The position numbers were made by a program, and so were the translations under genes. This document shows positions 6,483-39,951 of a stretch of DNA of 39,951 nt, one piece after another. Origin of the DNA: Elusimicrobiota bacterium (GTDB lineage: Bacteria > Elusimicrobiota > Elusimicrobia > F11). Numbering within the stretch: the stretch's first letter is position 1; each line of letters starts with the position of its first letter. The notes under the pieces are model-generated. The model searched no databases, was not told where the DNA came from, and was given only the letters and a program-made list of their open reading frames with translations. The DNA lies in the NCBI GenBank assembly GCA_046153645.1, contig JBJXGI010000009.1, forward strand, positions 1 to 39,951, read 5' to 3'.

Positions 6483-9400
6483 ATGAAAAGTTGTATCTTT
6501 TTTCGCTTTTTATCGGTTTGGTTATCAGCGATTTATTTTGCTACAAATTGTGCGTTTGCACATAAGCCGGAAACCAATATCTGGGACGAACGTCGTCAGG
6601 TGCAACTGGCGCAAGCCCCGATTGGTTCTTTAAAAAATTCTCCTCACGTTTTTAATCAGCTTCCACCCATTGGCACTTCACTTTCGAAAAAAATAACTGC
6701 TTTGGTCCCCCAAAAAATGAACCAGAGTTTACACCCTATTTTTCAGTCGCTTTCTTCCACCTATGGTTCTGTTCGGAAAATATCGGTTCCTCATAATGCA
6801 AAACCAGGAAAAATTCTTATTCATATTCAAGACGTTCACATGAATAAAGAAGCGCAAGTCAATATTGCCCAAGGAATTCAAGAATTAATAAACAAAGGCC
6901 AAGTGGATTTAATCGCTCTTGAAGGCGCATTTAACAACATTGATCTCTCCGCTTTCAGATCTTTCCCAGATAAAGAGATTGTTCGAAACGTGGCAGATTA
7001 TCTTCTTCGGTCGAACCAAATTTCAGGCCCCATTTACATGGTTTTGACGAGTGATAAAAATATTCCATCTATTATTGGGATTGACGATGAAAATCATTAC
7101 AACGCTAACGTTGCCGCTTATGTTGCTTCGAAACCGATGTTAACGTCTGTTAAAGAACGATTATCAAACTCACGCAATAAATTAACCGAAGAAAAATATA
7201 AAAATTTCAATGCTGACTTGTCACAGTTCGACAATGAAGTCGACGCCTATCGTCAAGGAACAATTTCGATGGGGGGTTACCTTGGTATCTTGAAAAATCA
7301 AATGACACCATTGTCTGTAGAGCTAACTCAGTTTCTTGACGCTTTTACCTTGGAATCTTCACTTGATTTAAAACGTGTTGAACGTGAACGCGCCTCTCTT
7401 TTAAACATTCTTCTGGTTCGTCTTAAGAAAAATGAAACCGCCGATCTTGTTAATGCCAGTTTGGCTTTTCGAACAGGTCATTTATCTCAAGGAAACTTTT
7501 ATAGCTATCTTCAAGAGCTTTGCGCAAATAAAGGTGTTTCTCTTGCTTCATTTCCCGCTTTGCGTGCTTACCTTCGTTATGTTTTATTGTCTGAAAATAT
7601 CGATGTTGAACATCTTTTTTCTAAGGTTAATAAAGCTGAGGTAGCAGCTTACGCTAGACTTACAAAAACACAGGAAGAAAAAGCGCTCGTTTTAGAATCC
7701 CAAAAACTTTACCTTACAGAAAAGCTGGTTGATTTTTCACTCACGAAAGATGAATGGAATGACTACAAGAAAAAATGTGCAGGGACATTAGATCTAACGT
7801 CATTTGAAAAATTTTATATTGAAGCCGAGGCGCGCGACCAAGCTATGGCTCAAAACCTCATTCGTGAAATGGGCAGGTTAAAGGCCCAGGTTTCTATTCT
7901 GGTAACAGGAGGCTTTCACTCAACTGGCATCACTCACCTTACAGAACAAGCCGGAATTACCACCATAGAGTTTGTACCTAAAATTACAAAAGTAGACACT
8001 GCCAAAGGCTCTTCTTACTTGAGTGTTTTCATGCAAGAAAAAACACCACTTGAAAAACTATTTGAAGGAAAGAAATTGTTCTTATCACAAAAAGTATGGA
8101 CAGGCCCCACACGTTATTTGGCCGGGGTCCTGGTTATGCTTCGTACTTTTTGGCTGCGTTTGGGAGACTTAAAAGGTCAATCCGAAATGAAAGAGCAGTT
8201 GGCGGTATTAACCGGCCAACCTGTCGACAATTGTTCTTTCTCAATTCAAGATGGGGATGCCAAGATGGACAACCAGACTGTTCAAATTACAGTTCGTCAA
8301 AATAAAAATGAAATTATTTCAGTTAGTCAAAAACCATCTTTCTTTTGGGTACCCTTCAGAGAATTTCAAGATACTTTTGCTATCGCACTTAAAAAAATAG
8401 ACCCTCTTAAATTTGTCATGAACCATCCACAATCGCAAGATATCAATGTGACATTAAAGCGTCTGTTGGGTTTAAAAGTGATGGGTACCTTGACTTGGAT
8501 GGGACTGGCCATTTCGCCCATCATTGTTGGTATGGCAGTGCTGTTGGGTGCCGGCTCGTGGGCCATGATTTTCTTTATTCTTTTTCGAATTAAAAATATT
8601 GATATGCGCATTGCCCATGTGATTTCCCATTGGATCCAAATGGCTCTTTTCCCGGAAGCGCGGTTGAGTGAAGGAAACAATAAAGAAATAAAAGCTGTGG
8701 TACGAGTACAAAAAACGAAGGAACTTATCTGGGATCCCGAACTGATAAAGAAAAGTTTCGAAAAACAATGGGAGCATTTTCCACCTGAAGATATGAGAGT
8801 TTCAAAGATGGAACCTGGTTACGCCGCGGTCGCAAGAGACCTTATCACTCAATTATCTCAAGAAGAAGTTTTTGATCTAACCGAAAAAAAATTCGCTGTT
8901 ATTGGTTTGTCGCTTGCAGAAATGATTGATAATTCTTTTCAGGCCAATGGAAATTCTTATGTTGGTGTTCGTGTGATTGGTATTCATGAGGAAGGGCACT
9001 TCCGTATTTATGTTCAGAACCCACAAGTAATCGACCTGAAAATTCTTTTAAATTCAGATCGATTGAACGAACTGTTGGCATTCTTAAAAATAGCCCACAC
9101 AGCGGTAACAACAAAAAATAAAAACTTTGTGGAAAACGAAAAAAATTTTCAATTTAAAGAGAGCGTTCTAACATGGTTGGACGAAGGTGCCATTCAAAAC
9201 TCAATTAAGCTTATTTCTGAAATACTAGAAAATAAACAATTGTCTGCTGAAGAAGAACTTAGCTTGGCCTTTGACTTCATAACGGGATATATGACGACCG
9301 GTCATGTGAATAAATTAAAAAATTATTACATAGCTGATCGCCCTATAGAAAGTGGCACTACAATGGGCATCGGCATGTGGTACGCACGGGAACGATTGGG

Positions 9401-12400
9401 GACTCAAGGCCTGGATTTAAAAATGCGCTTAGGAAACACTCCTCTTGAGCCGGAAACCGTTTTTGAAATTATTGTTCCTTATAAAAATAACACCGATCCC
9501 GCGAGTCCCTCTGAGCATCCTGGCGCCATCAACGACAGCTTCAACCGCTTTGTGATGCGGGTGGCGAATTTTTTTGGAGTAAGCACTAGCGGTCAATGGG
9601 CGGTAGTTGGTTTTTTTGAAGGGGCCTTTCGGCAAATGGGGTTTTATGTTTTGTTTCCAAGTATCTTTTTGGGAGTTTTTAAATTTTTGAATTTAAGTGG
9701 TCATTGGGCAATGGCACCACCCCTTATTGTTGGACTTTTCTTGTTTCTTTATACCGCTTTCTTTCTTGTTTTTTCTATCCGCTATTTCTATAAACAGCAT
9801 CTCAATAAAGGTGTCATTACTTTAACAGGCCCTGTCATTAATAATCCAAAAATGGCTCACCTATCCACGTGGACGGCCGCTTGGGGGTATATGGGGCTTC
9901 TCTTGGCCATTCCCGGATTTTTAATCGTCTTTTTTTCTTCAGATTTAGTAGGCATTATCATCGGGTGGTTATTTATTGGCATGGGTGTAATTATTGGCGG
10001 CTTTATGCATGGGAGAAAGAATTTTCATCTCTCAAAATTATCTGATAAAACAGAAATCCTAAAAATACCTCGAATCTCTTTTTACCGCGCTCTTAGTCAT
10101 TCATTTTTTGGGGATGATTTAAATAAATATCCTTTGACCGCTTCTGATCATCCAATTTTATTTTATCTAAGTTACTTCCCTCTTCTTTTTTCAATTACAA
10201 CAATCGGGTTTATGCTTTTTTTGTCTGCTGTTTTTGATGCGCCAAATTTCTTGTGGTTTATTAGCATTCTCTTGATTGGACCAGCTTTTACTTTTTCTGA
10301 ACTTTTAGCTGAAGGTCATGTCCCTTATATGGATGTATCTTTCTTGGTTTCTCGAACAGCGCGTCGCGCGATAAAAGAAAACAAGACAGGCATAGATCCA
10401 GACATCCAAACCATTTCAGATAATTTTGAACGTAAGACCGGTTGGAAAATCATCTGGCAAGAAAATGATTATATTCTTGCTGAGCTTGACTTGGACCAGA
10501 AAGAAATAAAAATGACACTGGGTTGGAAGGTTCCTCTCCAAAATAAAAAAGATATTGATAGTCGAAAAAGAATGTTCTTTGCCGTGCTCGAATCCGCAAA
10601 AAAATCAATAAAAAATGGTACCGGTTCTCAAGTGGACACCTTTAATCAACAAAATCCTCACACGCCTGGTGCCATCGCAAGCCCTCAGAATAAAATACTG
10701 GCCGCAGAAAAAGGGTTGGGTGCTGTTGGATGGAGAGAGCATCGAATCGGAATAGTTTCATATGTCTTCTTCGTTTTGGCCTATATGGGTGTTTACGCGT
10801 TGTTGGTAAGCCTTGGTTATCTCCCGGCAGCGCCGCCAGAAATGAGAGGCATCTTTTTTCTTTCGCTTCTTCAATCAACCGTTATTTTTTCAGTTATTTC
10901 CTTCTTAACTCTCCTTTACAAACATCACACTTATGGCGTCCTTCAAAAAGATCTAACGATAACAAGAAATTATTTTTCTGGAACGTGGGTGGCCTGGTCA
11001 GGTTTAATGATCAGCATCAGTATTATTTTTAGTGCTCTAAGTTTGACCCTGTTTAATCCAAACCTAATAAACGTTCTTACAACTATAGCTCTCAGTGTGG
11101 GGGGATATCTTCTTGGAGGATGGAACCATAGCACCATGAATTTAAGAGATACTGCCACTGTTAAAAACGAATTATTAAACGAAGTTGATCCAGCCACAGG
11201 TGCTATTTTGGAGACAACTTATCCACGTAGTCATATTCATGCGCACGGCATTTGGCATCAAACAGCGCATGTTCTCTTGCGAAGTCGAGATGGTCGTATT
11301 TTAATTCACGAGAGAAAAGACAATAGAAAAATAGAAATGAGCGCTTCAGGGCACATTGAAACAAATCATAGTCCGATATTTACTGCTCTTAAAGAATTGG
11401 AAGAAGAGCTTCAATTGATTCGATTGGGGATAAAAATTACTGCGGACCATTTAAAACCAATTTCATCGCCGTGGAATGAAGCTTTTTTTAGAAAGTCAAC
11501 ACAGGCTGAGATGGAAACCTCAGGTTATGGTGAAGATCGCATTTACCGATCAAAGTCAAAAGATAAATTTAATAATGAAATTAGTTATTTGTTTTCTGTC
11601 ACTATTGAAGATAGTCAAATGGATAAACTATTAGCTAAATTTAAACCCAATGAGGAAGTAAAAACCGTTAAAGCTGTAACAGTCGACACTTTGGTTTCTG
11701 ATATAGAAAAAAATCGATCAAATTACGCCAGTACTCTTCCACAATACTTTGAGGATCCTTTTGTTCGAACTCACGTGGTTAAAGAAATTGAAGACACTTC
11801 AATACTCGTTTCACTTGGCTCTTCGCTAAAAAAGAAAGTTGCTTTTATGGCCGCCTCCACCTTGATTTCAATGGCACTTTATGTTTTGTTTACTGTTATC
11901 ATTTCTCAAATAAATTTAAATTTTAAAGTCGCATACCCTATTGCTCTTTTTTGGGTCATAATTATTCTTCAGTTTGTGGGAAGCTTATGGGCCACTGTTC
12001 TTGCTTTTGGTTGGAAATGGGCCCTCACAAAAGAGTCGAAAGATAAACTATCTCTTTCAGAAATACGACAAGAAATTTTTGCCCGTTCTCTTCTTGCACC
12101 TCATTTTGCTGTTATGGCTGGGTTTTTATTATACGGTTGGCTTTTACCACTGATTAATTGGGGAAATTTTGATATGTACAAAGGACTCATTCTTCAAATT
12201 GCCATTTGCCCGTGGTTATTTGACGCAAATGCCTTTGTGTTGATTCGCCGATTTGCCAAACGCGTTATGGGGTTTACTCAGAATTATTTGGACGCAAAAA
12301 AAGAATTGCGTGGACTGGTGGTATTGGCTCTTTATTTCTTTATTCCAGGTCATATGATTGCAACTCAATTGGACCCTGTGTGGGCTGTGGCGACACTCAG

Positions 12401-13454: not shown

Positions 13455-13498
13455 ACCGGCCTGAATTAATAATTCACCTCGTTAATATAGCGCGATTT
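13209..13498 (+). repeat. 290-bp direct repeat, copy 1 (3' end of giant gene 1 plus trailer)
   Basis: Matches 20209-20498 at an offset of exactly 7000; I count 14 mismatches over the first 279 bp. Confidence 0.95.
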
Positions 13499-13625: not shown

Positions 13626-13665
13626 ACCGTTATTTTCCGTCAAGGAACGATTTTATTTTTGTCCC

Positions 13666-14240: not shown

Positions 14241-14246
14241 TGAGTA

Positions 14247-17200
14247 ATGAGAAGAGTAATATCAGTGCCATTAATCGCATTCATTTATTCTTTCACGCAA
14301 GTTCTTTTTCCTCATATTGCGGAGTCTTCTTTATGGGATGAGAGAAAGCAAGCATCAGCACGCATCAAAAACCAACAAATGGCTTTTCAGTCTTACTTCT
14401 CACCCGCCTTGATGCCGAAATTAAACGCTATTTTGCCCACACCGATCGAAGCGTATATTTCACCAATTCAAAAAAAATTAACCCCTTCGATACAAAGAAT
14501 TTTTTCAAAAATAGATACTCGCGTTTGCCGCATTTCAAAAACAACTTTTCCACCCACTTCTCGGCTTTTTCGAGGAGTGGTGATTCATATCCAAGATGTC
14601 CATCAAAATGAAGAAGCGCAAAAAAACATTGCCTCGGTTCTCACACCGCTGATGAATGAATCAGTTATTAATACACTGGCACTGGAAGGAGCATTTAACA
14701 AGCATGATTTTTTAGTTCTTCGCCGTTTCCCACAGCGTGAAGCGATTCAAAATGCGGCAGATTTCCTCCTTCATGAAGGGTTCATTTCTGGGCCCGTGCG
14801 TGCTTATTGGAACCTTGATCCCTCTTCAAATGTCAACTATGCTGGTATTGACGATAAAGAGCTTCATTCAAAAAACGTTCAGGCCTATCTGGATTCCTGC
14901 AATATAAAAGAAAGTATCGTTAAAAAACTATCCGTGATTCACAATTCTTTGATTCAAAAAAAATCAAAAGTATTTTCAATAGATTTCTTAAAGGCAGACA
15001 GTGTCATTGAAAATTTTCATATTGGAAAAACATCTCTATTTGAAGTGGTTAACCTTTTTCATTCGCTAGGAATTACATTAACAAGTAACCTTAAAAAATT
15101 CTACGAGGCTTCAATCATAGAAAAAAATCTCAACTGGAACCGAGTTGAACAAGAAAGATCTTTGGTGTTAGAAAAGATCGCTTCACGGCTTTCACTGGAT
15201 GATATGAATCAATTAAGGATAGGAAGCCTGGCTCTTCAAGAAGGACAAATAACGCATAGGCATTTTTATGAACTCTTCTCAAATATTTGCCTAAAAAAAG
15301 GTTACCCACTTACTCAATACCCTGCATTAGAAACTTATGTGAAATATATCACATTGGCAGAATCAATCAATGCTTCAGACCTTTTTTTAGAAGCTCAAAA
15401 AGAAGAAAAATTTTTTTATGAAAAGTACGCCCAAACTCCTGAAGAAGAAACACTGATTAAGCAATCTCAAGAAGAAAGGTGGCTTAAAAAACTAGTTCAA
15501 TTTGAACTAACACGTTCAGAGTGGGAGAGACAAGAAAAAAGCTTATCTTTACCATTAACAAGAGAAGAAATTTTTCCATTTCTTTCTTTTTATGAATCAG
15601 CCCTCAAACGGGATCTTGCCATGGGTGAAAATGTAAATAAATTAGCCACCAGTGAGAAAGAATCCATTATTGCACTTGTTACCGGAGGTTTTCACACCGA
15701 TGGATTAACATCGCATCTTACCTCTGATGGCTGGGTGGTCATTACACTCACGCCTAAACTAACCAAAATTGGATCCACAGAAGCTTCTTCATATTTATCT
15801 GTTTTTGCAAGCGAACATACGCCACTTGAAAAACTTTACCGCGGAGAAAAACTTTTTTTATCAGGTGACCCCAAGGCCGGAGAAGCGTTTATGCCTACAT
15901 TGGTCACAGGTTATATGTTTTCAACTGGCGCCAGAGGAAGCGCTCCTACAGACACATTTAATAATTTAGAACCAACTGTTAAAGCTGAAAGTGTCTCTGT
16001 TAAACCTACTAATGATGGAATAGAAGTTAAATTAGATTTTGATGAAACAGAAATTCAAGCTTCAATAACACATGATCAAAATAAAAAAATTACAGGGTTT
16101 AAACAAAAATATTTTCATAAGGTGTTAACCTGGTCAGCTCTTGAAACTCTTTTTCAGGTGGGTGTCATTCATTTAATTGGGGGTTTCTTGGGATGGATAA
16201 TCGCTGTCCCCGTCTTTGTGGTTCTTCATTACAGAAAGCCCTTACTACACTGGGTTAAAACTGGTATTCCACCTACTTTATCTTTTTCTAGCGGAGCCGA
16301 GCTTTTAATCCGTTTTCTCCTCGCCTTTGGATTTGCGGAATTAATTTTAATGTCGCATTCCAATGGGTATTTATATGCCTTCACTGCGCATGTGGTTTGG
16401 AATTTCTTATCAATCACTTTTTTTGATGAGTGGGCACTAATGACGCTTCCCCAAAAGAATGCTTTAGAAAAACTTAAGAAAGCCAAAGAAAAACTAAAAA
16501 ATACTCCCTCTCAAAAAAATGCTTTAAATGTTGTTGCTGCAATGGAGGGCATCTCACCCGGCGATGATATAGATGAAGCGGTTATTGAATTAACTGAATT
16601 TGCATTAGAGTTTGATGCGGATATAGCAGACTTAAACTGGAAAATTGTGGAACAAATTTTTAATCACGGACTTAAGGACAATGATAAGTCAGCGAAATCG
16701 GATCTCATGGAAATTATCAATAAATCTCAATCAGTATTATCAGTTAAAGAAGAGCCAGATCTTCACAGAATTACAATTAACACATTAAAGTTTTTATCTC
16801 AAGAAGAGGAATCAGAATGGAAGAGAGATTTGTGCGTTGCTCTGCTGCGCAGAGTTATATTCTCTATCGTATTTAGTATTGATATTAAAGATAACGTTAA
16901 TGCTTGGTTTCAAGAAGAAAATGAAATTCCGAAGGGAGCTGAGTCCTCACTCGCTGATGTGATTGCTTATAACGCTCGAGAAATGAATACAGCTTTTTTA
17001 AGTGACCCTTTAAATAAAAAAATATTGAATCAGTGGTTTTCTCTTGTAGTCATGCATGGCAATTTTGAAAATGCTCAAACAATGAAATTTTTGAGTGCCA
17101 TTGATGTTCCTTTAAAACTTTCCCAAAAGGTCAAAGATGCTCTTGCTCTTGAGCTCGAAAATGGAGTGTCTGAGACAAGAGTTAAATTATATATACGTTT

Positions 17201-20171: not shown

Positions 20172-20205
20172 ATTTTGAACCATCAAGTATAGCGCTTCAA
20201 AATAA

Positions 20206-27400: not shown

Positions 27401-28466
27401 GGGAAATAAAGGGTTTATGTTACAGGATGAAAATGGAAGTAATTTCCTTACTAATGGTAAAATTGTTTTTCCTGTTGACCTTGCGTCCTATGAAAAAGCA
27501 ACAACAACAGAGATGTTTTTCCCTGCGGTTGTCCAAAATTGGATTTATGCCAATAAAACATATGTCCCTTCTCGTTTTATGAAGGCACTCTTGGCACTAT
27601 ATGACGAAGAAGTGAAGTGGGAAAAATCACTGCAAGAAATAACAAAACGAGCTAAGTATATGGATGCCATCGGTGTTCAAGAAAGTTTGGAACAAAAGCT
27701 GAGTGTTTTATCTCCCGAACAAATAGAAGAGCGTGAAATGTTGGCCATTTTAAGCACAGAAGCCGAAGAACGCGCGCAATTAGGAATATTATTAGACCGG
27801 TATTCACCCAAAGCCACAGCCGTTGGTTTGGAGGGGGATAATAAACGTAGAGCTGAAGAATTTGACAATCTCCGGAAAGTTATCTCAGATCACTATGAAG
27901 ATAGAACAAATATGCCAGAAGGAGAACTTTCAGAAATATTGCCGGCCATGGCGCTTCTTTCCCGAAATAAAAATGAAGTTGTTGGTTTAACTAAAATTGA
28001 AAAACCAGAAGCCCCTGATTTGAAAAGCTCCTTGGTCATGGTATACGCTTCTGGTTCAAAAACCGAAGCGGAAGTTGTGAATGAAGCCAACAAGTCGATG
28101 GGTGTTAAAACGGTGATTGCTTTGGAAGCGACTCTGTTTGATTCATTTAACAAAAAAGAAGAATACGCAAAACAAGGGATTTGGTTTGTAAGAAATGACG
28201 ACCAACTGAAATTCTCACTTGAATCAATTAAAGAGTTAACAGGGGTGGAACAACTGAAGGAATTAAACTTTGTTGTTTCACGCAAAACACGTTTTTCTGA
28301 TACAACACTCGCCTCCATTGAACTCCTGAAATCATCATCTCCCGAATTGGTGGGTCTCTACCTGCTCTTAAATGAGCTCAACCGCGTTGCCTTACGCATA
28401 AACAGTGTGCAAGAGTTAGCTGATCTTGCTAAATTCCAACAACGACTGATTGATTCGCAAGCTTAA
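24414..28466 (+). CDS. giant modular protein 3, C-terminal part: calcineurin-like metallophosphoesterase, degenerate cNMP domain, TM module, protein-kinase-like domain
   Basis: PDVHE/GDNINR/GNHE/HAG/GH (~24895-25750); kinase LGKGLTGTVF, VAVK, MEFAEG, QDENGSN, VDLA (~27020-27500); no signal peptide or SD of its own. Confidence 0.85.
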   Translation: MLSFDNRYDVFQLVSQWTLRMKISSNSKLEPINITALALTLQRYLEKKQALAELKENSLLSELIRKNPVSEDLRTMARTVVAGYGKVKNGGVNNETTLQLSSLRNYRDGKFFAHAGRLAQLSRRVAKSLIYVPLRSRKGDKKNKIGRVELPSFKNFDKDFTVIPDVHENIYGLLHTLESSGWIDAEGKLITNGNAGKILIQMGDNINRNVSANGLAVLQLWARLWQQAKEFNDATDDPTQHIQIHTLLGNHELDLLKWESQQLDTNFTTAESRSIAERARDLLQQMVRSGALLGAFYLGNPDLAAEKKTGALLVHAGILPDVLSRMKQEIGSANVTGVEMASYINQELIKAIGDENPSGYSQAVFNHFLFSKSAGRSKKEGPIVSSDPSGPFEAEFSPRKEGDSFEQFRKLGIIDGDGKKLLTDEEIIAKLEDLYGGLLIWVGHNFYSEDNIGIRHADTSGIILPAVLILDGGDGQVGKEFNEETQTAVIRRGQETFQIYVETEEKKKKPSSLQERGKWIKDIGSGILPREAVAFLDQRQQRSTRANNNLPVGQVANDQAERISLLDEILNKDGQKVNTRTVALIANKSQQIQSKKGQHVGSSNDYVFALKGEFTGNLRPGQFLPEGTLVESDSALVLLIDKKIFEETLENNAGFQNFMKEQGVPSLTTPSTLRIGRWFYRQLGLTRTDDEIRTEFAPVFEVLWFFGMILFPPLIYVFYRAHLTKPSSPNVSIGDLDRHWLQKGVALVYGVPLLFVYTLTALLFHFSSHENFLTFVQDSLPLLFVIIGLATLMNFRMHKIFNINSVKQGKPALTTRNSNNESPNVLNIPAMPENLATMNLEAFIYDNAVEFFKLSGKIIVGDKEDSETVKFLGKGLTGTVFRLQIQESDGQKRYVAVKVASSERFQFDVINFEALGKDIQIFTDLYAGSQTYESEIPDVLYLRYYGKVQLKNESEEKPLMIFMEFAEGLPLNELQPIIEDKALSIAQNTLKAIISKGNKGFMLQDENGSNFLTNGKIVFPVDLASYEKATTTEMFFPAVVQNWIYANKTYVPSRFMKALLALYDEEVKWEKSLQEITKRAKYMDAIGVQESLEQKLSVLSPEQIEEREMLAILSTEAEERAQLGILLDRYSPKATAVGLEGDNKRRAEEFDNLRKVISDHYEDRTNMPEGELSEILPAMALLSRNKNEVVGLTKIEKPEAPDLKSSLVMVYASGSKTEAEVVNEANKSMGVKTVIALEATLFDSFNKKEEYAKQGIWFVRNDDQLKFSLESIKELTGVEQLKELNFVVSRKTRFSDTTLASIELLKSSSPELVGLYLLLNELNRVALRINSVQELADLAKFQQRLIDSQA

Positions 28467-28513
28467 TTTAAACTGGAATTCTATCACGAAGAATCGTATG
28501 ATCAACATCTTTC

Positions 28514-28552
28514 CGGAGCGTAGCGTAGTGGTAGCGCGCACCCTTGGGGTGG
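28514..28552 (+). tRNA. 5' half of tRNA-Pro(GGG), truncated just after the anticodon loop (pseudo-tRNA / att remnant)
   Basis: CGGAGCG-TA-GCGT-AGTGGTA-GCGC-G-CACCC-TTGGGGT-GG, then unrelated sequence; no T-arm or CGCTCCGA acceptor 3' strand found; TATGAT -10-like box upstream. Confidence 0.85.
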
Positions 28553-28771
28553 CAGTTTTGGCCTCTATGAAAATGGACCGGTAGTCGATTTTCCGTCGGA
28601 GAGACGTTCGCGGGCTTTCCTGGGCTTTCGCGAGTTTTGGCCAAAAAAGTTACGTAGAAGTTACGCTACTCGCTTGGGCAAGCGTAGTTTTCGTATTAAA
28701 CCTCCGCTTAAAGTACTCCGATAAATGGCACTTATAACAGGAAGGAGATATTTCATTTGTGAGTACGTTCC

Positions 28772-28951
28772 ATGTCTGACCAACAAACGGATGTGCCAAT
28801 TAAGGTCTTTGAAAGTTTTCTCAATGCTCTTGGAGAAGCTGGTATATCTCCGGAAATAATAAACCGTCTAAAGAAGACGTTATTAGAAGAACACAAGTTG
28901 GGGGACCGGGCTCTCAAGTCGGCTTTATTCCCGGATGAGCCAAGCCAGTGA
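28772..28951 (+). CDS. 59-aa protein coupled to the ATPase (not in ORF track)
   Basis: MSDQQTDVPIKVFESFLNALGEAGISPEIINRLKKTLLEEHKLGDRALKSALFPDEPSQ; its TGA overlaps the ATPase GTG (GTGA). Confidence 0.7.
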   Translation: MSDQQTDVPIKVFESFLNALGEAGISPEIINRLKKTLLEEHKLGDRALKSALFPDEPSQ

Positions 28952-31404: not shown

Positions 31405-31532
31405 CAATCCACGCCAGGATCAAAAACGCCTCCAATTTTCAGTGTGTTTTTGGGAATTCTATGTAACAATTTGTTTACAAAAAGTTCCGTGAAAATTAAC
31501 CCCGATTAAAGGCGATTTTAAGGCACCTTTCG

Positions 31533-31538
31533 TAGACT
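31533..31538 (+). promoter_or_regulatory. -10-like box TAGACT 7 nt before the ATG of giant gene 4
   Basis: TAGACT at 31533-31538, ATG at 31546, no SD. Confidence 0.45.
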
Positions 31539-31545
31539 TAGTAGC

Positions 31546-34500
31546 ATGAAGAAACGCCCTCTCGTTCGCTTCCTGTCGGCGACGTTAACCACCATCTATA
31601 TCGCCACCAATTGCGCCTTTGCTCATAAGCCTGAGGCGACGATGTGGGATGAGCGCCGTGGCGCGGTCAAAAATAGCGGGCCCACGCAACTCGCTCAGAT
31701 ACCTGTCAATCTTGCTTCACGGAATATCTCTTCTGTTCTTCACCAACTTCCGAGCGTAGAGCCTTCCCTACCCCATCAGCTCGAAAAATCGATTTCCAAA
31801 CAAGCGGCCTCTCAACTGGTTCCTGTCTTCAAATCCCTGTCAGGCGCTCACGGATCGATCCAAAAAATCCTGACTCCTAAGAATTCAAGGCCCGGCCGCA
31901 TCGTGATTCATGTCCAAGACGTTCATCGGAACGCCGAGGCTCAACAGAACATCAGCAAAGCCATTCAATCGTTAATTGACAACAATGTCGCCGACATGAT
32001 TGCGCTTGAAGGCGCTTTTGCTCCGATCGACATCTCTCCTTTTCGTGCCTATCCTCTCGAAGCGACCAAAAAGGTGGCGAATTATCTTCTTCGAGAGAAC
32101 CGGATTTCAGGTCCGATCTACGCGGCCTTCACAAGTCCCAAGCCGATCCCTCGAATTGTCGGCATCGACGATACCGTCCATTACAACGCAAACGTAGAAG
32201 CTTACCGACAGTCGATTTCCTCTTTGGCAGAATACAAGCGCCAGCTCAACGACCTGAGAACGAAGCTTGACGATGAAAAGAGGAAAGAATTTAGCCGACT
32301 TCTCTACGACTTTGATCGCCAAGCGCAGTCGTATGTCGATGGGAATTTGCCACTTGGACAATATGTTGAACGGCTCTCTCAACAAACATCGACGCCACCA
32401 CTAAACGTTGAAATTTTCCTCGAGGCCTACCGCTTGGAGTCCCGCCTGAATTTCGCCTCCGTTGAAGCGGAGCGCGGCCGGCTTCTCTCAGCTCTCCTTG
32501 AAAAACTCAGCACATCTGAATCTCAAAAACTGGTCGCCGCCAGCATGGCGTACCGATTAGGGAACATCTCTCACACGGACTTCTACACACGCCTAAAAAA
32601 CCTTTGCGCTCAAAATGGGATTGCCTTATCTCATTTCCCAGCCATGAATTCTTACCTTCAATACGTGCTTCTAACCGATCGGATTGATGCCGAGACTCTC
32701 TTCCGAGATATCAAGACGATGGAATCGTCGGCTTACTCCTTGCTCGCAAAAACGGAGGCCGAGAAACGCATCGTAACCGAATCAACTCAACTGTCCTTGA
32801 CTAGAAAGTTGCTCGACTTTTCTCTGACGAAAGATGAGTGGTCCGCCTATAAGGAAATCAAGAAAGGTGACCTCGCCTTTGATCTCAGTACTTTTGAGTC
32901 GTTCTACATCGAGGCTGAGCAGCGCGATCGCGCCATGTCTGAGAATCTTCTCAAAGCCGTGACTCAATCAAACGCGAAAGTAGCTGTTCTTGTCACTGGT
33001 GGGTTTCACTCCGACGGAATTGACCGTCAGCTTATGGAAAGCGGCTATATGGTCGTGTCTTTCACTCCAAAAATGACAAAAGTCGATTCAGAGAATGGAT
33101 CGGCCTATCTGAGTATCTTCGCTCAGGAAAAGACGCCATTGGACCGGTTATTTGAAGGTGAGAAGCTTTTCTTAAGCGAAGCGCCGATCCCAAAGGGCAC
33201 TCAAACCATTGAGGCGTTACAGAAACTTGCGGTGGAGGCCGACGGCCGCGCAGGCCTGTTCGAAACGAACTATACGCGAGGAACCTTCGGTGTGCTATTC
33301 GGGGAGGATGGTGAGGTCGCGGAAGTTGAATTCAAGCAACATATCGGAGCCTGGTTAGCAGAAAACGGTCTTGTAGAGAAGATCGGCGATGGTTTTCAGC
33401 AAATCGGAGCGAACTGCGCGGAAATAGCCAAAGCAATCGCAGCGCGATACGGTTTTGACATCGAGGCATTAACTGAAACCATAAAACAGGCGGGTTCAAT
33501 TGAAAACGTAAAAAGAGTTTTGTCCAAAGCCACTCCGTTCGCTCCTTTCAATTTGGTTATTCGTGCGAATCCGGCCGATCCGTCGCGCGTACATGTTACC
33601 GTTTCCATTTATGGAATTGAACTTAATTTCGGCGCGGGCAACGCCGAGGGGTTTGTTGAGCTGCACCGGGTTGATCTTAGGTCGAAGTCAGCATCTCTTT
33701 CCATACACAAAAATAGCCCCGCGTGGACCATTGGAGCTGATGTGCCAAGCAAAGGAAAAAGACCTGGAGGGGGTAAAGACGAGATCGCGAATTTATTGGA
33801 ACGCCTCAATACTGCCAAAACAAGAGATGAAAGAGAGTGGGTCGCAGACCTCTTATTAGGGGAATATGAGAGTGAGGGAATACAGTCAGAAAAAAAAGGG
33901 CGCATCCTCGATGCGCTCGTAGCTCGAGCCTCTCGCTTTCCAGCTGACTTGCTTCGACGGATTTTGGATTTAGCTCGCGAACAGCTCTTAGATGAGCTCA
34001 CTAAAAGCTTGGCTGATGTCGAGGAGGATCCAACAAAGAGCTGGCTGGAATATTTGTGCGATTCAAATGGAATTTTGAAGCTTTGGGGAAAAAGAAAAGA
34101 CATAGAGCTCTCCCTTCGGTCCATTGTCACTCACACAACGGACTACAACCGCGATCAGGTTTTCAGGGCGATCTTTTCGGATCGATTGCCTGAGCTGAGA
34201 AAAAACGGCATTGACGTCGTCGTGTATTTGCAATTCTGCGCGCGCATTCTTGCGCAAGAAAAAAGGTTGGGCTATCAAATCATCGAGGGCGTGTCGGATG
34301 GTTTGATGGAGAAAACTGTTGATATTGGTCTTCCTCTTGATGAACAAGATCGAATCTTCTCTTTTGTGTCGAAGTTTAATTCGTTTGAGCCGATCCTATT
34401 CAATCTTTACAAGCGGGACGAGACGATTTTGCTCGCTCCTCTCTTCGAATTTGCGCAGAGGATATTAATTGATGATGTAAGTCCCGAAAGAGCGGATCAA

Positions 34501-37500
34501 CTAGTTTCCTTTTATAACGAAAAAGGGATGGACGGAAACGCAATTTTGGCTGCGGCGATTCAAATGGTTATTCCCTCCTCGGGAGCTTCGTTCGTAGGAA
34601 AGAGCGAAATTGCAGGCCTTCTCCAGGAGTTTCGAGAATCAAAAGGGACTTCTGACCCGCGAGACGACGTTCCCCTGCTCCTTCGCGATATTGATTTCGG
34701 TGGCAAAGCGAAAGATGCGCTGACGCTGAAAGTGTGGTCTTTGAAAGCGGGAGAAACTTACGATCCAGACGATGCAATTTCGAACATGTTGCAGAGCCTT
34801 CGACACAAAGATTTTGGTTCTCAGAATAAGGCAAGAGTCATTGCAGCCGACAAAGGAAAGCTAACGAAGGCGTTACTCAATTACTTTTCAAATCCAAACT
34901 CGGACTCGAGCGGAAAAGCACTTAGGGCCTTTTTCTCCTTCGCGTCCCACAACGATTTGTTGGGAGAGAAGATCGACCGAATTAACCCCCGTGAATTCCA
35001 AGGTCTACAGTTGCTTGAGCAGCTTTTTGTTGACAAGGATGCTTTGGCGTCGATTCTAAAAGATGTTTTGGAGAAAATGGATCAAAACGTCTTTCCCAAA
35101 GTGTCCATGCAGACAAATCGGCCAATTGCAAATCCCGGAAGTCTTGCAAGGCAACTCCAGGGTGTGTGGGGTAGCGGGCAACCGGACAAGAAAGATCGTG
35201 TTGGTAAGATTCTCAATGAAATATCCGCGAAAGACATCGAAGATAAGGTTTTACCGTTGATCACAAATAAATTGCTCACTGCGTCTATTAAAAAAATTGT
35301 CAAAGAAGGACGGCCGGCAAGGCCCATGCAGCCCCTCGAGATCATCGAACAATTATTTAAAGAACCTTTGGCTTTTATTCAGAGAGAAAAGACTAAATTT
35401 CAAGTTGATGATCTTAGTTCCAAAATGACGCTTTCCTTTCGTGTAGTCAAAGGAGTTCCCTTCTCTCTCTGGGGAATTAACTGCGGTGTTTGTATCGCGA
35501 CGGATGTTGATCTGTGGAAAGATCCCCATTTTTTTCTGCTCGCAATGATTGATCCTAACAGCAAAACGGTGGTCGGGTTTGCGCATCTTTATGAACAAGT
35601 GATCGAAGGGAAAAAAGTGTTGACAGTTCCCGGAATTGAGCCAGGTGTGGAGTTCTTGTCGGAAGTGAATCCGAAAGATGTCTATCCACTTATCGAAAAG
35701 GCGCTGGTCGAAATAGCTCAAACGGGAGGTTATGATGCCCTTTACTTTCCCGTCAGTGAAAATATTCTTTCCAATCGACCGGATATCGCAAAGATTATTC
35801 AAAAACGCTTCCATAATAAAAAAATAACTCTATCCGAGGAAATAGATTGGAATCATGAACCACAACCATATCCATTTTCGACTGTCTACGAAGTTTGGGA
35901 AAAGAATGATGTAACTCCCCGTGATCCGGCTCAGGCCATTTCAACAAAAGTTTTTTGGCGAGCTCTTTTCGGCAATGCGAAATATGGGGAAACATTTTTT
36001 ACTGTCGCGTGGGAAGGATTTCGCCTGTCGCTTCTGTGGATCATTTTGTTTTCGCTCGACCTAACGATCTCTTCTCAATTCTGGAACGCGCTGTTCGTGC
36101 TCCAACTGTTCAACTACGCGGTGTTCTTATCGCCGCTCGAACACAAAATTGTCTCACGCCAGCAAGCCGGTGTATTGGCGCTGTTCACCGTTGGTTATTT
36201 CATCTCCTCTCTTTTTCCCGTTTTCTCTCCGTTATTTTTTGTCGCGATCTTAGCGATCTTAATCATCCATTACGCTCACGACTCTGGAATGCTCCGCAAA
36301 TTTTTGCGGACGCGATGGGAAAGAAGGAGCGACGTTTTGAAGCCATCGTGGAAAGAACACTGGAAGGTTCTGAATCCGGTTTGGATCGTTGATTCGCATG
36401 AACCAAAAACTATTTCCGACTGGGTTCAACTCGGAATGGGATACGTTTTACTTCTTTCCTTCATTCATCTTTTCAATACCGGACTCGTTTACCTGTTGGC
36501 ATCGACCACGTCGTTGGATTTTTCCAAGATCGAACATTTGGCCGATGCACTTTCCTTCGCTGTCGGCGTTTTTCCGGCGCACATGACGGTGAATGTGATT
36601 GCGGTTCTGTTGGGTTGGAAAGCGCTCTCCGAACCTAAAAATAAAGAAGATTCGAAAAAACGTTTTATTGAAGGCATTGAAATCGGAGATCAGTTCGTTT
36701 ATCCACCTATGGGCCTGGTTACCGTGGTTTCCTTGGATACCGATGGGAAATCGGTATTTTTTAAAGAAGGTGCAATAACGAGCCAAGTTGCTTTAAAAGC
36801 GGAAGGAAGAAGATCCAAGGTCGAAGTGAATGCCGCCAACTTCTTTCTCTATAAAAAAAGCGGCAAGAAAAAAATCTACAGCGAAGGCTTAGAAGCGATC
36901 CGACAAAGAGCGATCAAAAGAGTCCCGGAGCTTTATATCGCGATCTACTTCGGCCTAATGGGGATTGATAACCGATTACGCTCAGGCAATCCCAATATTG
37001 ATAAAAATTCTTATCAGGAAGCTTTTTGTGACACCTGGGAAGAAGTCTTTGATGAAACAACCCGAATAAATCAAGCCTTGGTGACCATTGCCACAAAATT
37101 GGACCGTCAGCAACTCGATGAGAAGCTTATAACCTTCCTTAGGAAGTACTTCTTAAAAATATATTTTGAAACCGGGGAAGATCTGGTTTTAACGGGCGCC
37201 ATGAATTCTTACGGGGAAAGCTTTAAATCTGGCCAATCTGAAAAATTTAAATACTTTGTCAATTATCGTCGGAATTTCAATTTGTTCGGCGACAGGGGAT
37301 TTGTTCCCAAAGATGTTCACGATTATTTCATGGATTGGGTCATCAGAACCGGCTTACGGGGAATAAACAAAGCCGGGGGAAAAGAAACAATCACTGATGA
37401 GGAATATAGAAAAATACACGATCAATATTTCTATTTTTTGGCCCCGTATTTTTCGAAAAAGGACCCGAGACATCAAACCGACGATTTCTCCAAGTTAATA

Positions 37501-39951
37501 CTTAGGCAGAAGAAAGACTTTTCGGTTACCGACGACATTGCGTCTTTGGTGAATGATCGATTGGACCAGTTATCAAGCAGCCCGTTTTCCGAAGTCGATT
37601 TGATTGTCCCGGCCCCCGCTATCAACGCATTGACAAACCAAACGATCCCGCTTGCTCAGTTCGTTGCGCAGAAACTTCAGCGTCCATTGAGCTTGACCGC
37701 CATTCGCCAGATAAGGAAACGAAAAAGCCAAAAGAAACTCTCGACAATGCAAAGGCGAGCGTTCAACGCCGGTGGCGTGTTTGACGGAACCGCTGACGAA
37801 CTCGAAGGCAAAACAATATTGATTGTTGATGACAACGAAACATCCGGATTCACCGGCGCGGCGATGATGGTCGCCGCGTATGAAGCCGGGGCAAAAAAAG
37901 TACTGCTTCTTTCCTACGGCAGATCGTTTAAAAAGAATCAGCCGGAAACGCTTCCGCCTTCACCCTCCAAACCAGAAAAGAACTTCACGTTTTCTCTTGA
38001 GAATCTTGTTGCTTTGATTTTGGGATCGGATGTCTCCAGTCGAGCAAAGGTGGCCGCCATAAACTCTCTTCCCGTTGAACATTTGTATTCATCGATTCTG
38101 ACGGCTTTTTGGGAGATTTTAAGCGATGAGGAAAAGAGTCCGGGCCTTCAAAGTGTTATCCGTATTCATTTGGGGCGAGCGTTGGGTTTTGGTTCGTCAA
38201 GGGGAATGAGCGCAGCCACAATAAGAAATGTCCCTCTGTTTATGGACTTCATGCGATCAAAGGGGATTATAGATGCGTCCTCTGCTCTCTTAGAACAGAC
38301 ACGAATGCTAAAAGCCTACAAGTTCGCCGAGAAACGCATGAAAAGAATTAGAGAGAGTGTCAATAATCCGCAGGAACCTGGCCCATCGGATTCAGCCCAA
38401 GCCATCTCCACAAAATCCCTTTGGCATTTTTTCTTCGACGACGCGAAATACGGGCAGACATTGTTCACGGTTGCGTGGGAAGCATTTCGTTTGTCGGTTC
38501 TGTGGATCATTCTATTTTCACCCGACCTAACGATCTCTTCTCAACTCTGGAACGCGCTGTTCATGCTCCAACTGTTCAACTACGCGGTGTTCTTGTCGCC
38601 GCTCGAACATTACATCACCACGCGCGGGCAATTCGGTGTATTGATCCTTCTTACCCTCGGTTACCCTTCTTCGATTCTCCTGGTCGCTCTTGTCAACCCT
38701 TGGTTTTTAGTTGCGATTATTTCTCTTCTACTTATTCACTATCGTCATGATATTGAGCGGATAAATCCGCTTTTATCAAAAGCTTCATTAAATACCGTTT
38801 TCGATTTTAATCAGGACCAAAAGCGGGTGGTCTTTTTACTGGCAATTTTCCTCACTTATGTTATGACGCCGTCGCTTCTAATATGGGGTCCTAAGGCTCG
38901 TGTCAACGGCGTCCAGAGTTTTCACAATGCTAATTTAAAAGACTGGCAAGAAATTCCGGAACCGCCACGACGTCGAGGAAGAATAAATATAGATGGCGCA
39001 GATTCGTCTCATTCCTTTTCTGGCAGTCTCAATGATTTGCCTCCGCCATCGATAATTGGGCACGAAATATACGCAATGGATATACACGCGATAAAAGAAA
39101 TAAAACAATATGAATATGGGCCGCCAACTGCAGTGATTAGAGAGGTTATGATGCCACTCATTCCAGTTGAGGACATTTATATATATCCGTTTCCGAAACC
39201 GAGAAAGGAGGAGGAAGGAGAAAAAACGGTTGTTGAACGAGAAGAAATTCCCGCGCCTTTACCGCCGACCATTGAGCTTGGTCAGGGATTTGTTCAAACT
39301 CCCGCTCGAAGTTTTATTGAAGGTGCCGAAATAACCCACGATTTATTCCTTGAAGACAATCCTTTTTTATCCATTGCGGTTGTTACGTCATCGGAAGGGT
39401 TGCCCTTAAGGCTTTTCATAAAGAAGATTGAAGGTCATGAAGATTTGATCATTAGTAAAGCTGTTAGCTTTGGGGCAGCGACATCGGTTAAATTAACCTA
39501 CATACATCATCCAGCCGATCCCGAATACCGTGTGCTAGTTGTCGTGGCCAGATTGCTGTCGGGCAACACGATGAAGTATACAGTTACATTAAACCATGAG
39601 GAAAAAACTCTTATGCTTCATAGGCAAGGCGGTGATTTTAATGGCCGTCCTTCAAGTTCTTTTGAGAGGAGAATGTCACGAACGTCACAGTCCGTAACTC
39701 CCTCGTTACATAAGAATAATTCGGATCTTAATGATTCTGCTCAAGCCACTTTAACAAGATTTGTCTCTGCGTTTGCGGCTTTCTTCATCGCACATGGTTT
39801 GCCGACCGTTCATGGCAGTGCGCGGCCAATCACCCCCGATGTATCTCAAAGCGGATACCTACTTAACGAGCTATTGGGTCCTGTTCAAAACATCGGTGTC
39901 GGATCTCTTAAACAAAATCTTAACGCATTCAAGAGTGAAATAAAAGAATCG
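31546..39951 (+). CDS. giant modular protein 4 (at least 2802 aa, runs off the window): conserved N-domain, GNAT-like, TM modules, CarD-RID-like, ComF-like phosphoribosyltransferase
   Basis: Read codon by codon in frame 1 with no stop from ATG 31546 to the end; IATNCAFAHKPE..MWDERR, HVQDVH, ALEGA, GIDD, RDRAMS, GGFH; PRTase DLIVPAP...SQKKLS...ILIVDDNETSGFT...GAKKV (~37590-37925). Confidence 0.92.
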   Translation, partial: MKKRPLVRFLSATLTTIYIATNCAFAHKPEATMWDERRGAVKNSGPTQLAQIPVNLASRNISSVLHQLPSVEPSLPHQLEKSISKQAASQLVPVFKSLSGAHGSIQKILTPKNSRPGRIVIHVQDVHRNAEAQQNISKAIQSLIDNNVADMIALEGAFAPIDISPFRAYPLEATKKVANYLLRENRISGPIYAAFTSPKPIPRIVGIDDTVHYNANVEAYRQSISSLAEYKRQLNDLRTKLDDEKRKEFSRLLYDFDRQAQSYVDGNLPLGQYVERLSQQTSTPPLNVEIFLEAYRLESRLNFASVEAERGRLLSALLEKLSTSESQKLVAASMAYRLGNISHTDFYTRLKNLCAQNGIALSHFPAMNSYLQYVLLTDRIDAETLFRDIKTMESSAYSLLAKTEAEKRIVTESTQLSLTRKLLDFSLTKDEWSAYKEIKKGDLAFDLSTFESFYIEAEQRDRAMSENLLKAVTQSNAKVAVLVTGGFHSDGIDRQLMESGYMVVSFTPKMTKVDSENGSAYLSIFAQEKTPLDRLFEGEKLFLSEAPIPKGTQTIEALQKLAVEADGRAGLFETNYTRGTFGVLFGEDGEVAEVEFKQHIGAWLAENGLVEKIGDGFQQIGANCAEIAKAIAARYGFDIEALTETIKQAGSIENVKRVLSKATPFAPFNLVIRANPADPSRVHVTVSIYGIELNFGAGNAEGFVELHRVDLRSKSASLSIHKNSPAWTIGADVPSKGKRPGGGKDEIANLLERLNTAKTRDEREWVADLLLGEYESEGIQSEKKGRILDALVARASRFPADLLRRILDLAREQLLDELTKSLADVEEDPTKSWLEYLCDSNGILKLWGKRKDIELSLRSIVTHTTDYNRDQVFRAIFSDRLPELRKNGIDVVVYLQFCARILAQEKRLGYQIIEGVSDGLMEKTVDIGLPLDEQDRIFSFVSKFNSFEPILFNLYKRDETILLAPLFEFAQRILIDDVSPERADQLVSFYNEKGMDGNAILAAAIQMVIPSSGASFVGKSEIAGLLQEFRESKGTSDPRDDVPLLLRDIDFGGKAKDALTLKVWSLKAGETYDPDDAISNMLQSLRHKDFGSQNKARVIAADKGKLTKALLNYFSNPNSDSSGKALRAFFSFASHNDLLGEKIDRINPREFQGLQLLEQLFVDKDALASILKDVLEKMDQNVFPKVSMQTNRPIANPGSLARQLQGVWGSGQPDKKDRVGKILNEISAKDIEDKVLPLITNKLLTASIKKIVKEGRPARPMQPLEIIEQLFKEPLAFIQREKTKFQVDDLSSKMTLSFRVVKGVPFSLWGINCGVCIATDVDLWKDPHFFLLAMIDPNSKTVVGFAHLYEQVIEGKKVLTVPGIEPGVEFLSEVNPKDVYPLIEKALVEIAQTGGYDALYFPVSENILSNRPDIAKIIQKRFHNKKITLSEEIDWNHEPQPYPFSTVYEVWEKNDVTPRDPAQAISTKVFWRALFGNAKYGETFFTVAWEGFRLSLLWIILFSLDLTISSQFWNALFVLQLFNYAVFLSPLEHKIVSRQQAGVLALFTVGYFISSLFPVFSPLFFVAILAILIIHYAHDSGMLRKFLRTRWERRSDVLKPSWKEHWKVLNPVWIVDSHEPKTISDWVQLGMGYVLLLSFIHLFNTGLVYLLASTTSLDFSKIEHLADALSFAVGVFPAHMTVNVIAVLLGWKALSEPKNKEDSKKRFIEGIEIGDQFVYPPMGLVTVVSLDTDGKSVFFKEGAITSQVALKAEGRRSKVEVNAANFFLYKKSGKKKIYSEGLEAIRQRAIKRVPELYIAIYFGLMGIDNRLRSGNPNIDKNSYQEAFCDTWEEVFDETTRINQALVTIATKLDRQQLDEKLITFLRKYFLKIYFETGEDLVLTGAMNSYGESFKSGQSEKFKYFVNYRRNFNLFGDRGFVPKDVHDYFMDWVIRTGLRGINKAGGKETITDEEYRKIHDQYFYFLAPYFSKKDPRHQTDDFSKLILRQKKDFSVTDDIASLVNDRLDQLSSSPFSEVDLIVPAPAINALTNQTIPLAQFVAQKLQRPLSLTAIRQIRKRKSQKKLSTMQRRAFNAGGVFDGTADELEGKTILIVDDNETSGFTGAAMMVAAYEAGAKKVLLLSYGRSFKKNQPETLPPSPSKPEKNFTFSLENLVALILGSDVSSRAKVAAINSLPVEHLYSSILTAFWEILSDEEKSPGLQSVIRIHLGRALGFGSSRGMSAATIRNVPLFMDFMRSKGIIDASSALLEQTRMLKAYKFAEKRMKRIRESVNNPQEPGPSDSAQAISTKSLWHFFFDDAKYGQTLFTVAWEAFRLSVLWIILFSPDLTISSQLWNALFMLQLFNYAVFLSPLEHYITTRGQFGVLILLTLGYPSSILLVALVNPWFLVAIISLLLIHYRHDIERINPLLSKASLNTVFDFNQDQKRVVFLLAIFLTYVMTPSLLIWGPKARVNGVQSFHNANLKDWQEIPEPPRRRGRINIDGADSSHSFSGSLNDLPPPSIIGHEIYAMDIHAIKEIKQYEYGPPTAVIREVMMPLIPVEDIYIYPFPKPRKEEEGEKTVVEREEIPAPLPPTIELGQGFVQTPARSFIEGAEITHDLFLEDNPFLSIAVVTSSEGLPLRLFIKKIEGHEDLIISKAVSFGAATSVKLTYIHHPADPEYRVLVVVARLLSGNTMKYTVTLNHEEKTLMLHRQGGDFNGRPSSSFERRMSRTSQSVTPSLHKNNSDLNDSAQATLTRFVSAFAAFFIAHGLPTVHGSARPITPDVSQSGYLLNELLGPVQNIGVGSLKQNLNAFKSEIKES
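35923..36282 (+). repeat. internal TM-module repeat of giant gene 4, copy 1
   Basis: DPAQAISTK...FTVAWEGFRL...VFLSPLEH...HYAHD; the core is nearly identical in DNA to 38389-38751. Confidence 0.92.
38389..38751 (+). repeat. internal TM-module repeat of giant gene 4, copy 2
   Basis: DSAQAISTK...FTVAWEAFRL...VFLSPLEH...HYRHD. Confidence 0.92.

Follow-up and report, generated by a model that had tools for sequence, protein, structure and literature searches.

The window analysed in this study, i.e., the whole 39,951-nucleotide stretch of DNA from an Elusimicrobiota bacterium (contig C80 of a 2.6-Mb genome in 105 contigs), contains nine membrane modules that an earlier note had proposed to be embedded relatives of the CPBP/Rce1 intramembrane proteases, able to cut the chains that carry them and to free the cargo domains in between. 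Our analysis revealed that all nine are genuine membrane cassettes, and that they sit in giant mosaic proteins of a very large Elusimicrobia family. Each of these proteins is laid out as an exported TIKI/ChaN-like head followed by membrane cassettes that alternate with enzyme-like cargo, and the cassettes belong to several families and not to one. The explanation that we prefer, and to which we would give an even chance, is that the modules directly behind the head are derived from CPBP proteins, and that the two other main types, here named the PGAI and the F cassette, are rare families of their own, each with four helices and with a CPBP-like polar site on one membrane face that acts in cis. 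Domain matches at the Pfam level in the paralogues suggest that the post-head module descends from the CPBP/Rce1-type glutamic intramembrane proteases, and it is for the PGAI and F cassettes that we infer homology to CPBP, as well as hydrolytic activity and any cleavage.

The giants are encoded on the plus strand of the window by large open reading frames (ORFs). ORFs A (6483..13454, 2323 amino acids), B (14247..20171, 1974 amino acids), C (20564..24439, 1291 amino acids) and F (31546..39951, at least 2802 amino acids, with its 3' side open at the end of the window) share an N-terminal head of ~540 amino acids behind a signal-peptide-like start, with an identity of 26-49%; read by eye, all four have Sec-type signal peptides with AxA-like sites. 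In A, the signal peptide and the TIKI/ChaN-like head (amino acids ~1-560) are followed by membrane modules alternating with cargo, which includes a weak NUDIX match at amino acids 1592-1654, while B consists of the head, a post-head module, a long helical cargo, a PGAI cassette and a C-terminal cargo. ORF C has the head and a cNMP-binding domain with no membrane module. In F, ~900 amino acids with no membrane helix separate the head from the first cassette, and the cassettes are accompanied by cargo with a weak phosphoribosyltransferase match. ORF D (24414..28466, plus strand, 1350 amino acids, its frame being open from 24375) lacks the head and has a weak metallophosphatase match and one membrane module. 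The assignment of the head to the ChaN/Tiki type is based on matches to PF04187 that are weak and stay below the cut-off (E=0.0091 for A and 0.0035 for F); of 20 relatives, 15 have such a match at E≤0.1.

The head domain gave 59 matching stretches in the genome, which a hidden Markov model (HMM) places in 48 open-frame pieces of up to 10189 amino acids; together these pieces total 106,760 amino acids, i.e., 12.2% of the genome. When residues 1-760 of B were used as the query, the 8000 candidates that were scored included 335 relatives at E≤1e-3, and several of these relatives were labelled Elusimicrobia by their source. The cargo annotations of the relatives were very diverse and included NUDIX, inositol monophosphatase, PPDK, sigma-70, glycosyltransferases, hexokinase and subtilase. 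Class-II amidotransferase domains were confined in the genome to frames of 472-645 amino acids, and phmmer found none in 120 fetched relatives. Neither this Elusimicrobia family nor the occurrence of CPBP-type cassettes in polyproteins was found to be described in a search of the full-text literature outside subscription journals.

Three unrelated intramembrane-protease families recur in the giants as cassettes, and this is the best reason to believe that hydrolysis within the membrane is important to them. A scan of the genome with PF02517, the CPBP family, identified one free-standing gene and the modules directly after the head in the paralogous frames C29 (27.9-28.5 bits, over the cut-off) and C19 (22.8 bits, over the cut-off in the genome scan, falling to 20.3 bits, below it, when the cut region was rescanned), as well as, weakly, C56. 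Among 43 post-head regions, four matched PF02517 at E≤1 (loci L018, L013, L034 and L029 at 28.5, 20.3, 14.3 and 11.0 bits), only the first of them being over the cut-off. In C34 the same position is filled by Peptidase_M50 (27.5 bits, over the cut-off), and in C53, a 1082-amino-acid frame at a contig edge (L004), a Peptidase_A8 domain (26.6 bits, over the cut-off) lies just downstream of a PGAI cassette. Scans for protease families outside the own genome covered 20 related genomes, where PF02517 was found inside frames of 1431 (50.4 bits), 12118, 5065, 3219 and 1516 amino acids, M50 inside frames of 1115-3623 amino acids and Peptidase_A8 inside frames of 965-1431 amino acids. The relative P0056 also carries Peptidase_A8, at 792-863 (40.5 bits). 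As judged from these domain matches, the family does embed intramembrane-protease domains in cis. It was also observed that one chain of a related genome, the 1431-amino-acid frame on contig C178 of G012, combines CPBP (50.4 bits) with Peptidase_A8 (34 bits).

The clearest case of cassettes between cargos in the genome is C31, a frame of 2471 amino acids (loci L020 and L045-L047), which has four near-identical CPBP-like cassettes (EExxxR / HxxxH / HxxNN) at amino acids 659-763, 1187-1296, 1650-1759 and 2116-2226, i.e., ~460 amino acids apart and between stretches of cargo. C71 has two CPBP-like cassettes, and the modules of C29, C31 and C71 carry the full EExxxR. Pfam does not recognise the copies in C31 and C71; in an independent phmmer comparison, the Pfam-positive module of C29 was linked to C31 and C20. 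The seeds for the iterated HMMs were CPBP-like paralogue modules chosen by eye on their motif, so that only this phmmer link is independent, and these HMMs stalled at 12 own and 19 total hits, reaching none of the nine window modules. Sequence searches of the PDB with the post-head profile and with the Pfam-positive paralogue module returned nothing relevant, and so gave no sequence bridge to a solved CPBP structure even for the Pfam-positive module. Separately, the longest head-bearing frame (10189 amino acids, contig C86, L044) contains a pair of membrane modules eight times over, and the second module of the pair has a conserved, metalloprotease-like HExxH...E, for which Pfam names no family at E≤1.

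All nine modules, which lie on the plus strand, proved to be present as the earlier note described them: every residue string quoted there lies inside its module, in the frames of A, B, D and F, and hydrophobic helices occur in all nine. The starts are in frame in eight modules, that given for ORF D (26420) being off frame by 2 nucleotides. The idea that otherwise divergent modules keep Glu, His and His-x3-Asn/Asp largely held within the PGAI and the F families, in which most of these residues are conserved, but one common family could not be demonstrated; modules 2, 3 and 5 were linked by BLAST and HMM and modules 7 and 8 by clustering. Where CPBP proteins have their first motif (EExxxR), all nine modules have one Glu near a helix start; module 2 alone has ExxxR (FEGAFR), and the F cassettes have ExxR. 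The Phe of the second motif (FxxxH) stands at -4 in modules 1, 2, 4 and 6 (FVMNH, FYKQH, FVVLH and FYRAH) and is Leu in modules 3 and 5; neither the F cassettes (FLSPLEH) nor module 9 have this motif. The third motif is HxxxN in six modules (2-6 and 9), HxxxD in the two F cassettes and HxxxH in module 1. Typical distances between the CPBP motifs are ~30 and ~55 residues (archaeal Rce1 values), and the corresponding Glu-His and His-His distances are 28 and 54 in module 4, 21 and 76 in module 6, 21 and 64 in module 1, and 14 and 61 in module 9.

Module 4 (16131..16445, amino acids 629-733 of B) is the post-head module of B and contains E633, FVVLH (H661) and HVVWN (H715, N719). It is the best CPBP candidate of the nine, and its descent from CPBP proteins is likely. 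Its ten best named protein-language-model neighbours all belong to the family or clan of the top PF02517 hit, which scored 0.90 with 177/256 shared features. The structural model of module 4 that was built from 14 divergent paralogue modules was poor, with a predicted local distance difference test (pLDDT) of 70.5 and a predicted template modelling score (pTM) of 0.33, which makes fold searches with it meaningless. Module 1 (8340..8670, amino acids 620-730 of A), which is the first after the head of A, has E627, FVMNH (H648) and AHVISH (H712, H716). Its hydrophobic part is one long hairpin, which the Glu and the first His precede in sequence that is not hydrophobic. Module 1 has no Pfam match, and phmmer groups it only with C15 and C49. 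By eye, its PF.E..FQD and FxxxHP resemble the paralogue post-head modules, and module 1 looks like a degenerate relative of these CPBP-like modules.

The PGAI cassette is represented by module 2 (9516..10023, amino acids 1012-1181 of A, with PGAI at 9519-9530, E1046, FYKQH with H1106, and HGRKN with H1176 and N1180), module 3 (10662..11141, amino acids 1394-1553 of A, with PGAI at 10665-10676, E1419, LYKHH and HSTMN) and module 5 (18936..19415, amino acids 1564-1723 of B, with PGAI at 18939-18950, E1589, LYKHH and HSKKN). Modules 5 and 3 share 53% identity, including ~60 amino acids of upstream flank. The genome has seven copies of this cassette, in all of which E42, H102, H172 and N176 are invariant, along with the PGxI, APP and GV columns; ATxTA is a further motif, and there are invariant Gly and Pro columns besides the polar ones. 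After five distant relatives were added, giving an alignment of 12 sequences at 20-24% identity, H102, H172 and N176 were still invariant. The AlphaFold model of module 2 that was based on these 12 sequences (pLDDT 82.3, pTM 0.75) consists of an amphipathic helix (15-26) and four long helices (31-67, 79-104, 118-147 and 151-185). In this model the Glu lies 11 residues inside one end of helix 1, H102 is at the same-side end of helix 2, and in helix 4, H172 and N176 stand 9-13 residues from the end on that side. The order of the helices suggests that Glu42, His102, His172 and Asn176 would point toward one end of the bundle, on the side of both flanking cargos. Foldseek gave no match for the model at E≤1e-3, and VIA-align returned only generic helical bundles (best Z 6.9 among all representatives and 5.0 on a second look), with Rce1 absent among the matches of both programs that were listed. 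The comparison with Rce1 that the earlier note had suggested gave no CPBP likeness for the PGAI cassette by profile, hhalign or Foldseek, which does not amount to a rejection of such a likeness; the language-model neighbours of module 4 did point to CPBP.

The earlier note had also noticed that PGAI or AQAI precedes several modules. PG[AS]I was found upstream of all seven own-genome copies of the PGAI cassette, where it is part of a longer conserved flank (e.g., TGSQVDTF..NP..PGAI), but PGAI is specific to this one cassette type. In the model, the A-I of PGAI (residues 11-12) is joined by a beta bridge to the hairpin at 107-114, which comes after His102, in a block with a pLDDT of 91. AQAI stands upstream of both F cassettes, which are, however, recent repeats.

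The F cassette occurs twice in ORF F, as module 7 (35923..36282, amino acids 1460-1579, with AQAI at 35929-35940, WEG with E1490, SPLEH with H1533, and HYAHD) and module 8 (38389..38751, amino acids 2282-2402, with AQAI at 38395-38406, WEA with E2312, SPLEH and HYRHD). These near-identical repeats cluster with the first membrane module of the paralogue C91 and with one relative, P0005, and all four sequences keep WEG, EH, RxQ and the last two residues of HYxHD. One member has Gln in place of the first His of this string, of which only the final H-D is thus conserved. The best language-model neighbours of the F cassette (score 0.78) were small inner-membrane proteins, with no CPBP protein among them. 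Word-based homologue searches with the PGAI and F cassettes returned only proteins of the genome itself.

In the reading that we prefer, the PGAI and F cassettes would be rare four-helix bundles that keep the Glu (mostly), two His and an Asn or Asp, and these polar sites would be catalytic or would bind metal or water, like a minimal CPBP site. They would act in cis on the giant chain or on their immediate neighbours, and the PGAI junction, which is docked beside His102 in the model, would be a candidate substrate or product segment. Cuts at the PGAI sites of A would yield products that each keep an N-terminal cassette, i.e., membrane-tethered units and not freed cargo.

Several observations weigh against this reading. 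The idea of embedded proteases is borne out by the CPBP, M50 and A8 domains of paralogues and relatives, but none of the nine window modules matches PF02517 at E≤10, or a Pfam protease family of any kind, and none matches the NCBIfam CPBP models at E≤10. The double Glu of EExxxR is present in none of the nine, nor is the canonical combination of double Glu and Arg. The spacing of the motifs (60 and 70 residues in the PGAI cassette, 43 and 42 in the F cassette) departs from the 28 and 54 of module 4. No significant link beyond the obvious relatives was found by hhalign between the profiles of the cassette types or against the CPBP profile; the best P of the nine, 0.0012 for module 4, was insignificant and concerned only the HxxxN helix. 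A search of 1.84 billion representatives with the PGAI profile returned seven proteins at E≤1e-3, three of them from the own genome and none an ordinary CPBP protein, and a search of the PDB sequences with the same profile returned nothing relevant. The Glu column of the PGAI cassette is not conserved in the distant relatives of the 12-sequence alignment, although every sequence in it has some Glu near the start of helix 1. Among 20 relatives that were picked for their motif-bearing modules, PF02517 was found in none (whole-protein E≤0.1). The PGAI segment appears in the model as a docked, structured element, which fits a substrate- or product-like role and a purely structural one equally well. 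Moreover, the topology can be read in two ways: the cNMP-binding domain of C stands right behind an exported head, as do the ~900 amino acids of F that precede its first helix, so that either much of the cargo is outside the cytoplasm or the start is a non-cleaved signal. Many CPBP-family proteins are also thought not to be active proteases.

The most probable alternative, possible though on balance doubtful, is that the cassettes are membrane anchors or topology-return units and that the giants work as intact, membrane-tethered enzyme arrays. An even number of helices would return the chain to the same side of the membrane, and the His, Asn and Glu would pack helices or bind a structural metal or a lipid head group and would hydrolyse nothing. 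This would fit the PGAI model, which is a plain four-helix bundle with generic structural matches (Z≤6.9) and a flank modelled as a structured part of the cassette, as well as the invariant Gly and Pro columns beside the polar ones and the lack of a detectable protease family in any of the nine modules. However, invariant His, His and Asn in helices that diverge so fast (24% identity between the subtypes) point beyond packing, and the occurrence of three true intramembrane-protease families in equivalent positions of paralogues and relatives is hard to explain by anchoring alone. At the other extreme, the giants may be true membrane polyproteins in which every cargo enzyme is paired with a minimal cassette for intramembrane hydrolysis, and each cassette would cleave the chain in cis at its conserved junction. 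The cassette would be CPBP-derived behind the head, of the PGAI or F type at later positions, and an M50 or signal-peptidase-II module in paralogues; this stronger form seems rather unlikely to us.

It could also be asked whether part of the list is a coincidence, i.e., whether unrelated helices in 36349-36630 (module 9), in the module of ORF D (module 6) and perhaps in 8340-8670 (module 1) happen to fit loose rules. Motif counts were made on the modules of head-bearing proteins from the own genome and the 120 fetched relatives. The strict order E..[hydrophobic]xxxH..HxxxN was found in 16 of 93 first modules, as compared with 0.8 +/- 1.0 in shuffled ones (maximum 4 in 200 shuffles), and in 31 of 223 internal modules, as compared with 2.2 +/- 1.4 (maximum 8). 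The order E..FxxxH..HxxxN/D was present in 17 of 43 own post-head regions (shuffles 3.3 +/- 1.7, maximum 8 in 500) and in 43 of 122 relatives (shuffles 11.4 +/- 3.1). The loose order E..H..Hxxx[N/D/H] occurred in 27/93 first and 91/223 internal modules, as compared with 4.3 and 13.0 after shuffling. Because paralogous repeats are not independent, these counts are descriptive and are not P values, and they overstate the significance.

The same shuffles show that the loose rule fits 5-6% of modules by chance, so that chance could account for singletons like modules 6 and 9. Neither has a detectable relative in BLASTP clustering or profile comparison on which conservation could be checked. Module 6 (26418..26855, amino acids 669-814 of D) contains E701, FYRAH (H722) and HKIFN (H798, N802); a likeness to the PGAI cassette can be seen by eye only (FYRAHL / FMH...N), and the module perhaps belongs with it. 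In module 9 (36349..36630, amino acids 1602-1695 of F) the KE and IVDSH belong to a soluble, non-hydrophobic stretch that precedes the helices, and only HMTVN is in a helix; the reading as an intramembrane protease is unsupported for this module, and its residue pattern may be chance. Module 1 likewise has its Glu and first His outside the hydrophobic part. The tail of the type ALT, ALS, ALM or RLS that the earlier note had seen behind some modules turned out not to be enriched ([AR]L[STM] in 13 of 114 modules, as compared with 9.6 +/- 3.1; 82 of 500 shuffles reached 13). P-x-A-[STLIVM] after HxxxN was more frequent (17 of 114, as compared with 6.6 shuffled, a value reached in 0 of 500 shuffles), but since this motif was defined post hoc it is only a lead. 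Coincidence does not account for the PGAI and F cassettes, in which paralogues keep the residues, nor for the several-fold, family-wide excess over shuffles, and by eye module 1 shares E, FxxxHP and AH with modules of the paralogues C15, C49 and C79; even for this part of the list we regard it as improbable.

It is very improbable that the giants are exported multi-effectors in the manner of the MARTX or large clostridial toxins, with cassettes that insert into a target membrane and translocate cargo and embedded proteases that release the enzymes, for although A, B, C and F have Sec-type signal peptides, normally cytosolic cargo (cNMP-binding, NUDIX and phosphoribosyltransferase) follows the exported head, with no intervening helix in C and F, relatives carry hexokinase, PPDK and sigma factor cargo, and ~12% of the genome is spent on a hypervariable family, neither pore-forming repeats nor a cysteine protease domain nor a secretion partner was seen, a signal peptide followed by polytopic helices is what an ordinary inner-membrane protein has, and the relatives also carry housekeeping-like and periplasmic-type domains. 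The MARTX and large clostridial toxins are giant chains that free internal effectors via a soluble, inositol-phosphate-activated cysteine protease domain. The likeness would be that of a built-in protease in a giant chain, and no sequence relation to the giants described here was seen.

Among known systems, the CPBP/Rce1 enzymes (PF02517, including the bacterial Abi, MroQ and MrtJ types) are the closest in mechanism. Both have a small membrane core with a Glu on one helix, FxxxH on the following one and HxxxN on a helix further along, and CPBP domains recognisable at the Pfam level take the position of modules 1 and 4 in paralogues and relatives. In contrast, the window modules have a single Glu, mostly with no Arg, and match no CPBP model, the PGAI cassette (PGAI, APP, GV, ATxTA) and the F cassette (EH, RxQ, HD) have motifs and spacing of their own, and the cassette is repeated here inside a chain of 2000-10000 amino acids and is not a free-standing enzyme. 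The site-2 proteases (M50), which act in regulated intramembrane proteolysis, and signal peptidase II (A8) resemble the cassettes in that members of their families fill cassette positions in paralogues and relatives; they are normally separate enzymes that act on other proteins, whereas here they are embedded in the putative substrate chain. No M50 or A8 cassette lies in the window itself.

The closest precedent for the fusion is that of Zhang et al. (2012, PMC3482391), who described a PrsW-type membrane peptidase, in their view a distant relative of CPBP, fused in cis to polymorphic toxin domains and proposed that it releases the cargo. As in the giants, a membrane-embedded peptidase is joined there to variable cargo; in those fusions, one N-terminal peptidase is combined with one C-terminal toxin, while the giants have an exported head, several different cassettes per chain and cargo that resembles metabolic enzymes. 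PrsW was not detected in the giants analysed here. In layout, the closest proteins are the 'Archaeovorin' giants of Omnitrophota, in which many membrane regions are interleaved with glycolytic and PPDK-type enzymes and whose cleavage into several products by soluble C39 and S8 domains was suggested by West-Roberts et al. (2023, bioRxiv 10.1101/2023.11.21.568195). Both are bacterial giants in which membrane regions alternate with enzyme domains. The Omnitrophota proteins belong to another phylum, are much larger and rely on soluble proteases, and the passages of the preprint that were consulted mention neither a TIKI-like head nor CPBP-like cassettes.

Apart from the cassettes, the window opens with the housekeeping genes miaA, hflX, a pgsA-like gene, plsY and gpsA, which are followed by six large ORFs (A-F). 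ORF E (28948-31404) encodes an ATPase of the SMC_N/AAA_23/AAA_15 type that is unrelated to the giants. The G+C content is 0.35-0.41 across ORFs A-D and rises to 0.45-0.50 in the region 28000-36000, i.e., in ORF E together with the first half of F. ORFs C and D are probably the front half and the continuation of one gene. A run of nine A (24377..24385, plus strand) lies inside a 65-nucleotide stretch (24375-24439) in which the frames of C and D are both open, and a one-base slip there would fuse them into a head-bearing protein of ~2640 amino acids; the frame break may stem from an error in the assembly, or it may reflect phase variation or programmed frameshifting. Additional membrane regions were observed outside the nine modules, at 11770-12880 (amino acids 1763-2133 of A), at 10090-10410 (amino acids 1203-1309 of A) and at amino acids 1212-1336 of B, one of which is a domain of roughly ten helices near the end of A. 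These regions of A and B have no Pfam match, and searches for relatives found none beyond the database entry of A itself.

Even if the chains are not cleaved, the invariant His, His and Asn in rare four-helix cassettes provide a defined target for structural work and mutagenesis. If the giants are true membrane polyproteins, one precursor of 2000-10000 residues would give rise to a set of separate enzymes that are membrane-tethered or released, and the PGAI and F cassettes would be two new, unrecognised minimal families of intramembrane protease. Should the cassettes be active, they would give bacteria a modular way to build and mature very large membrane polyproteins.

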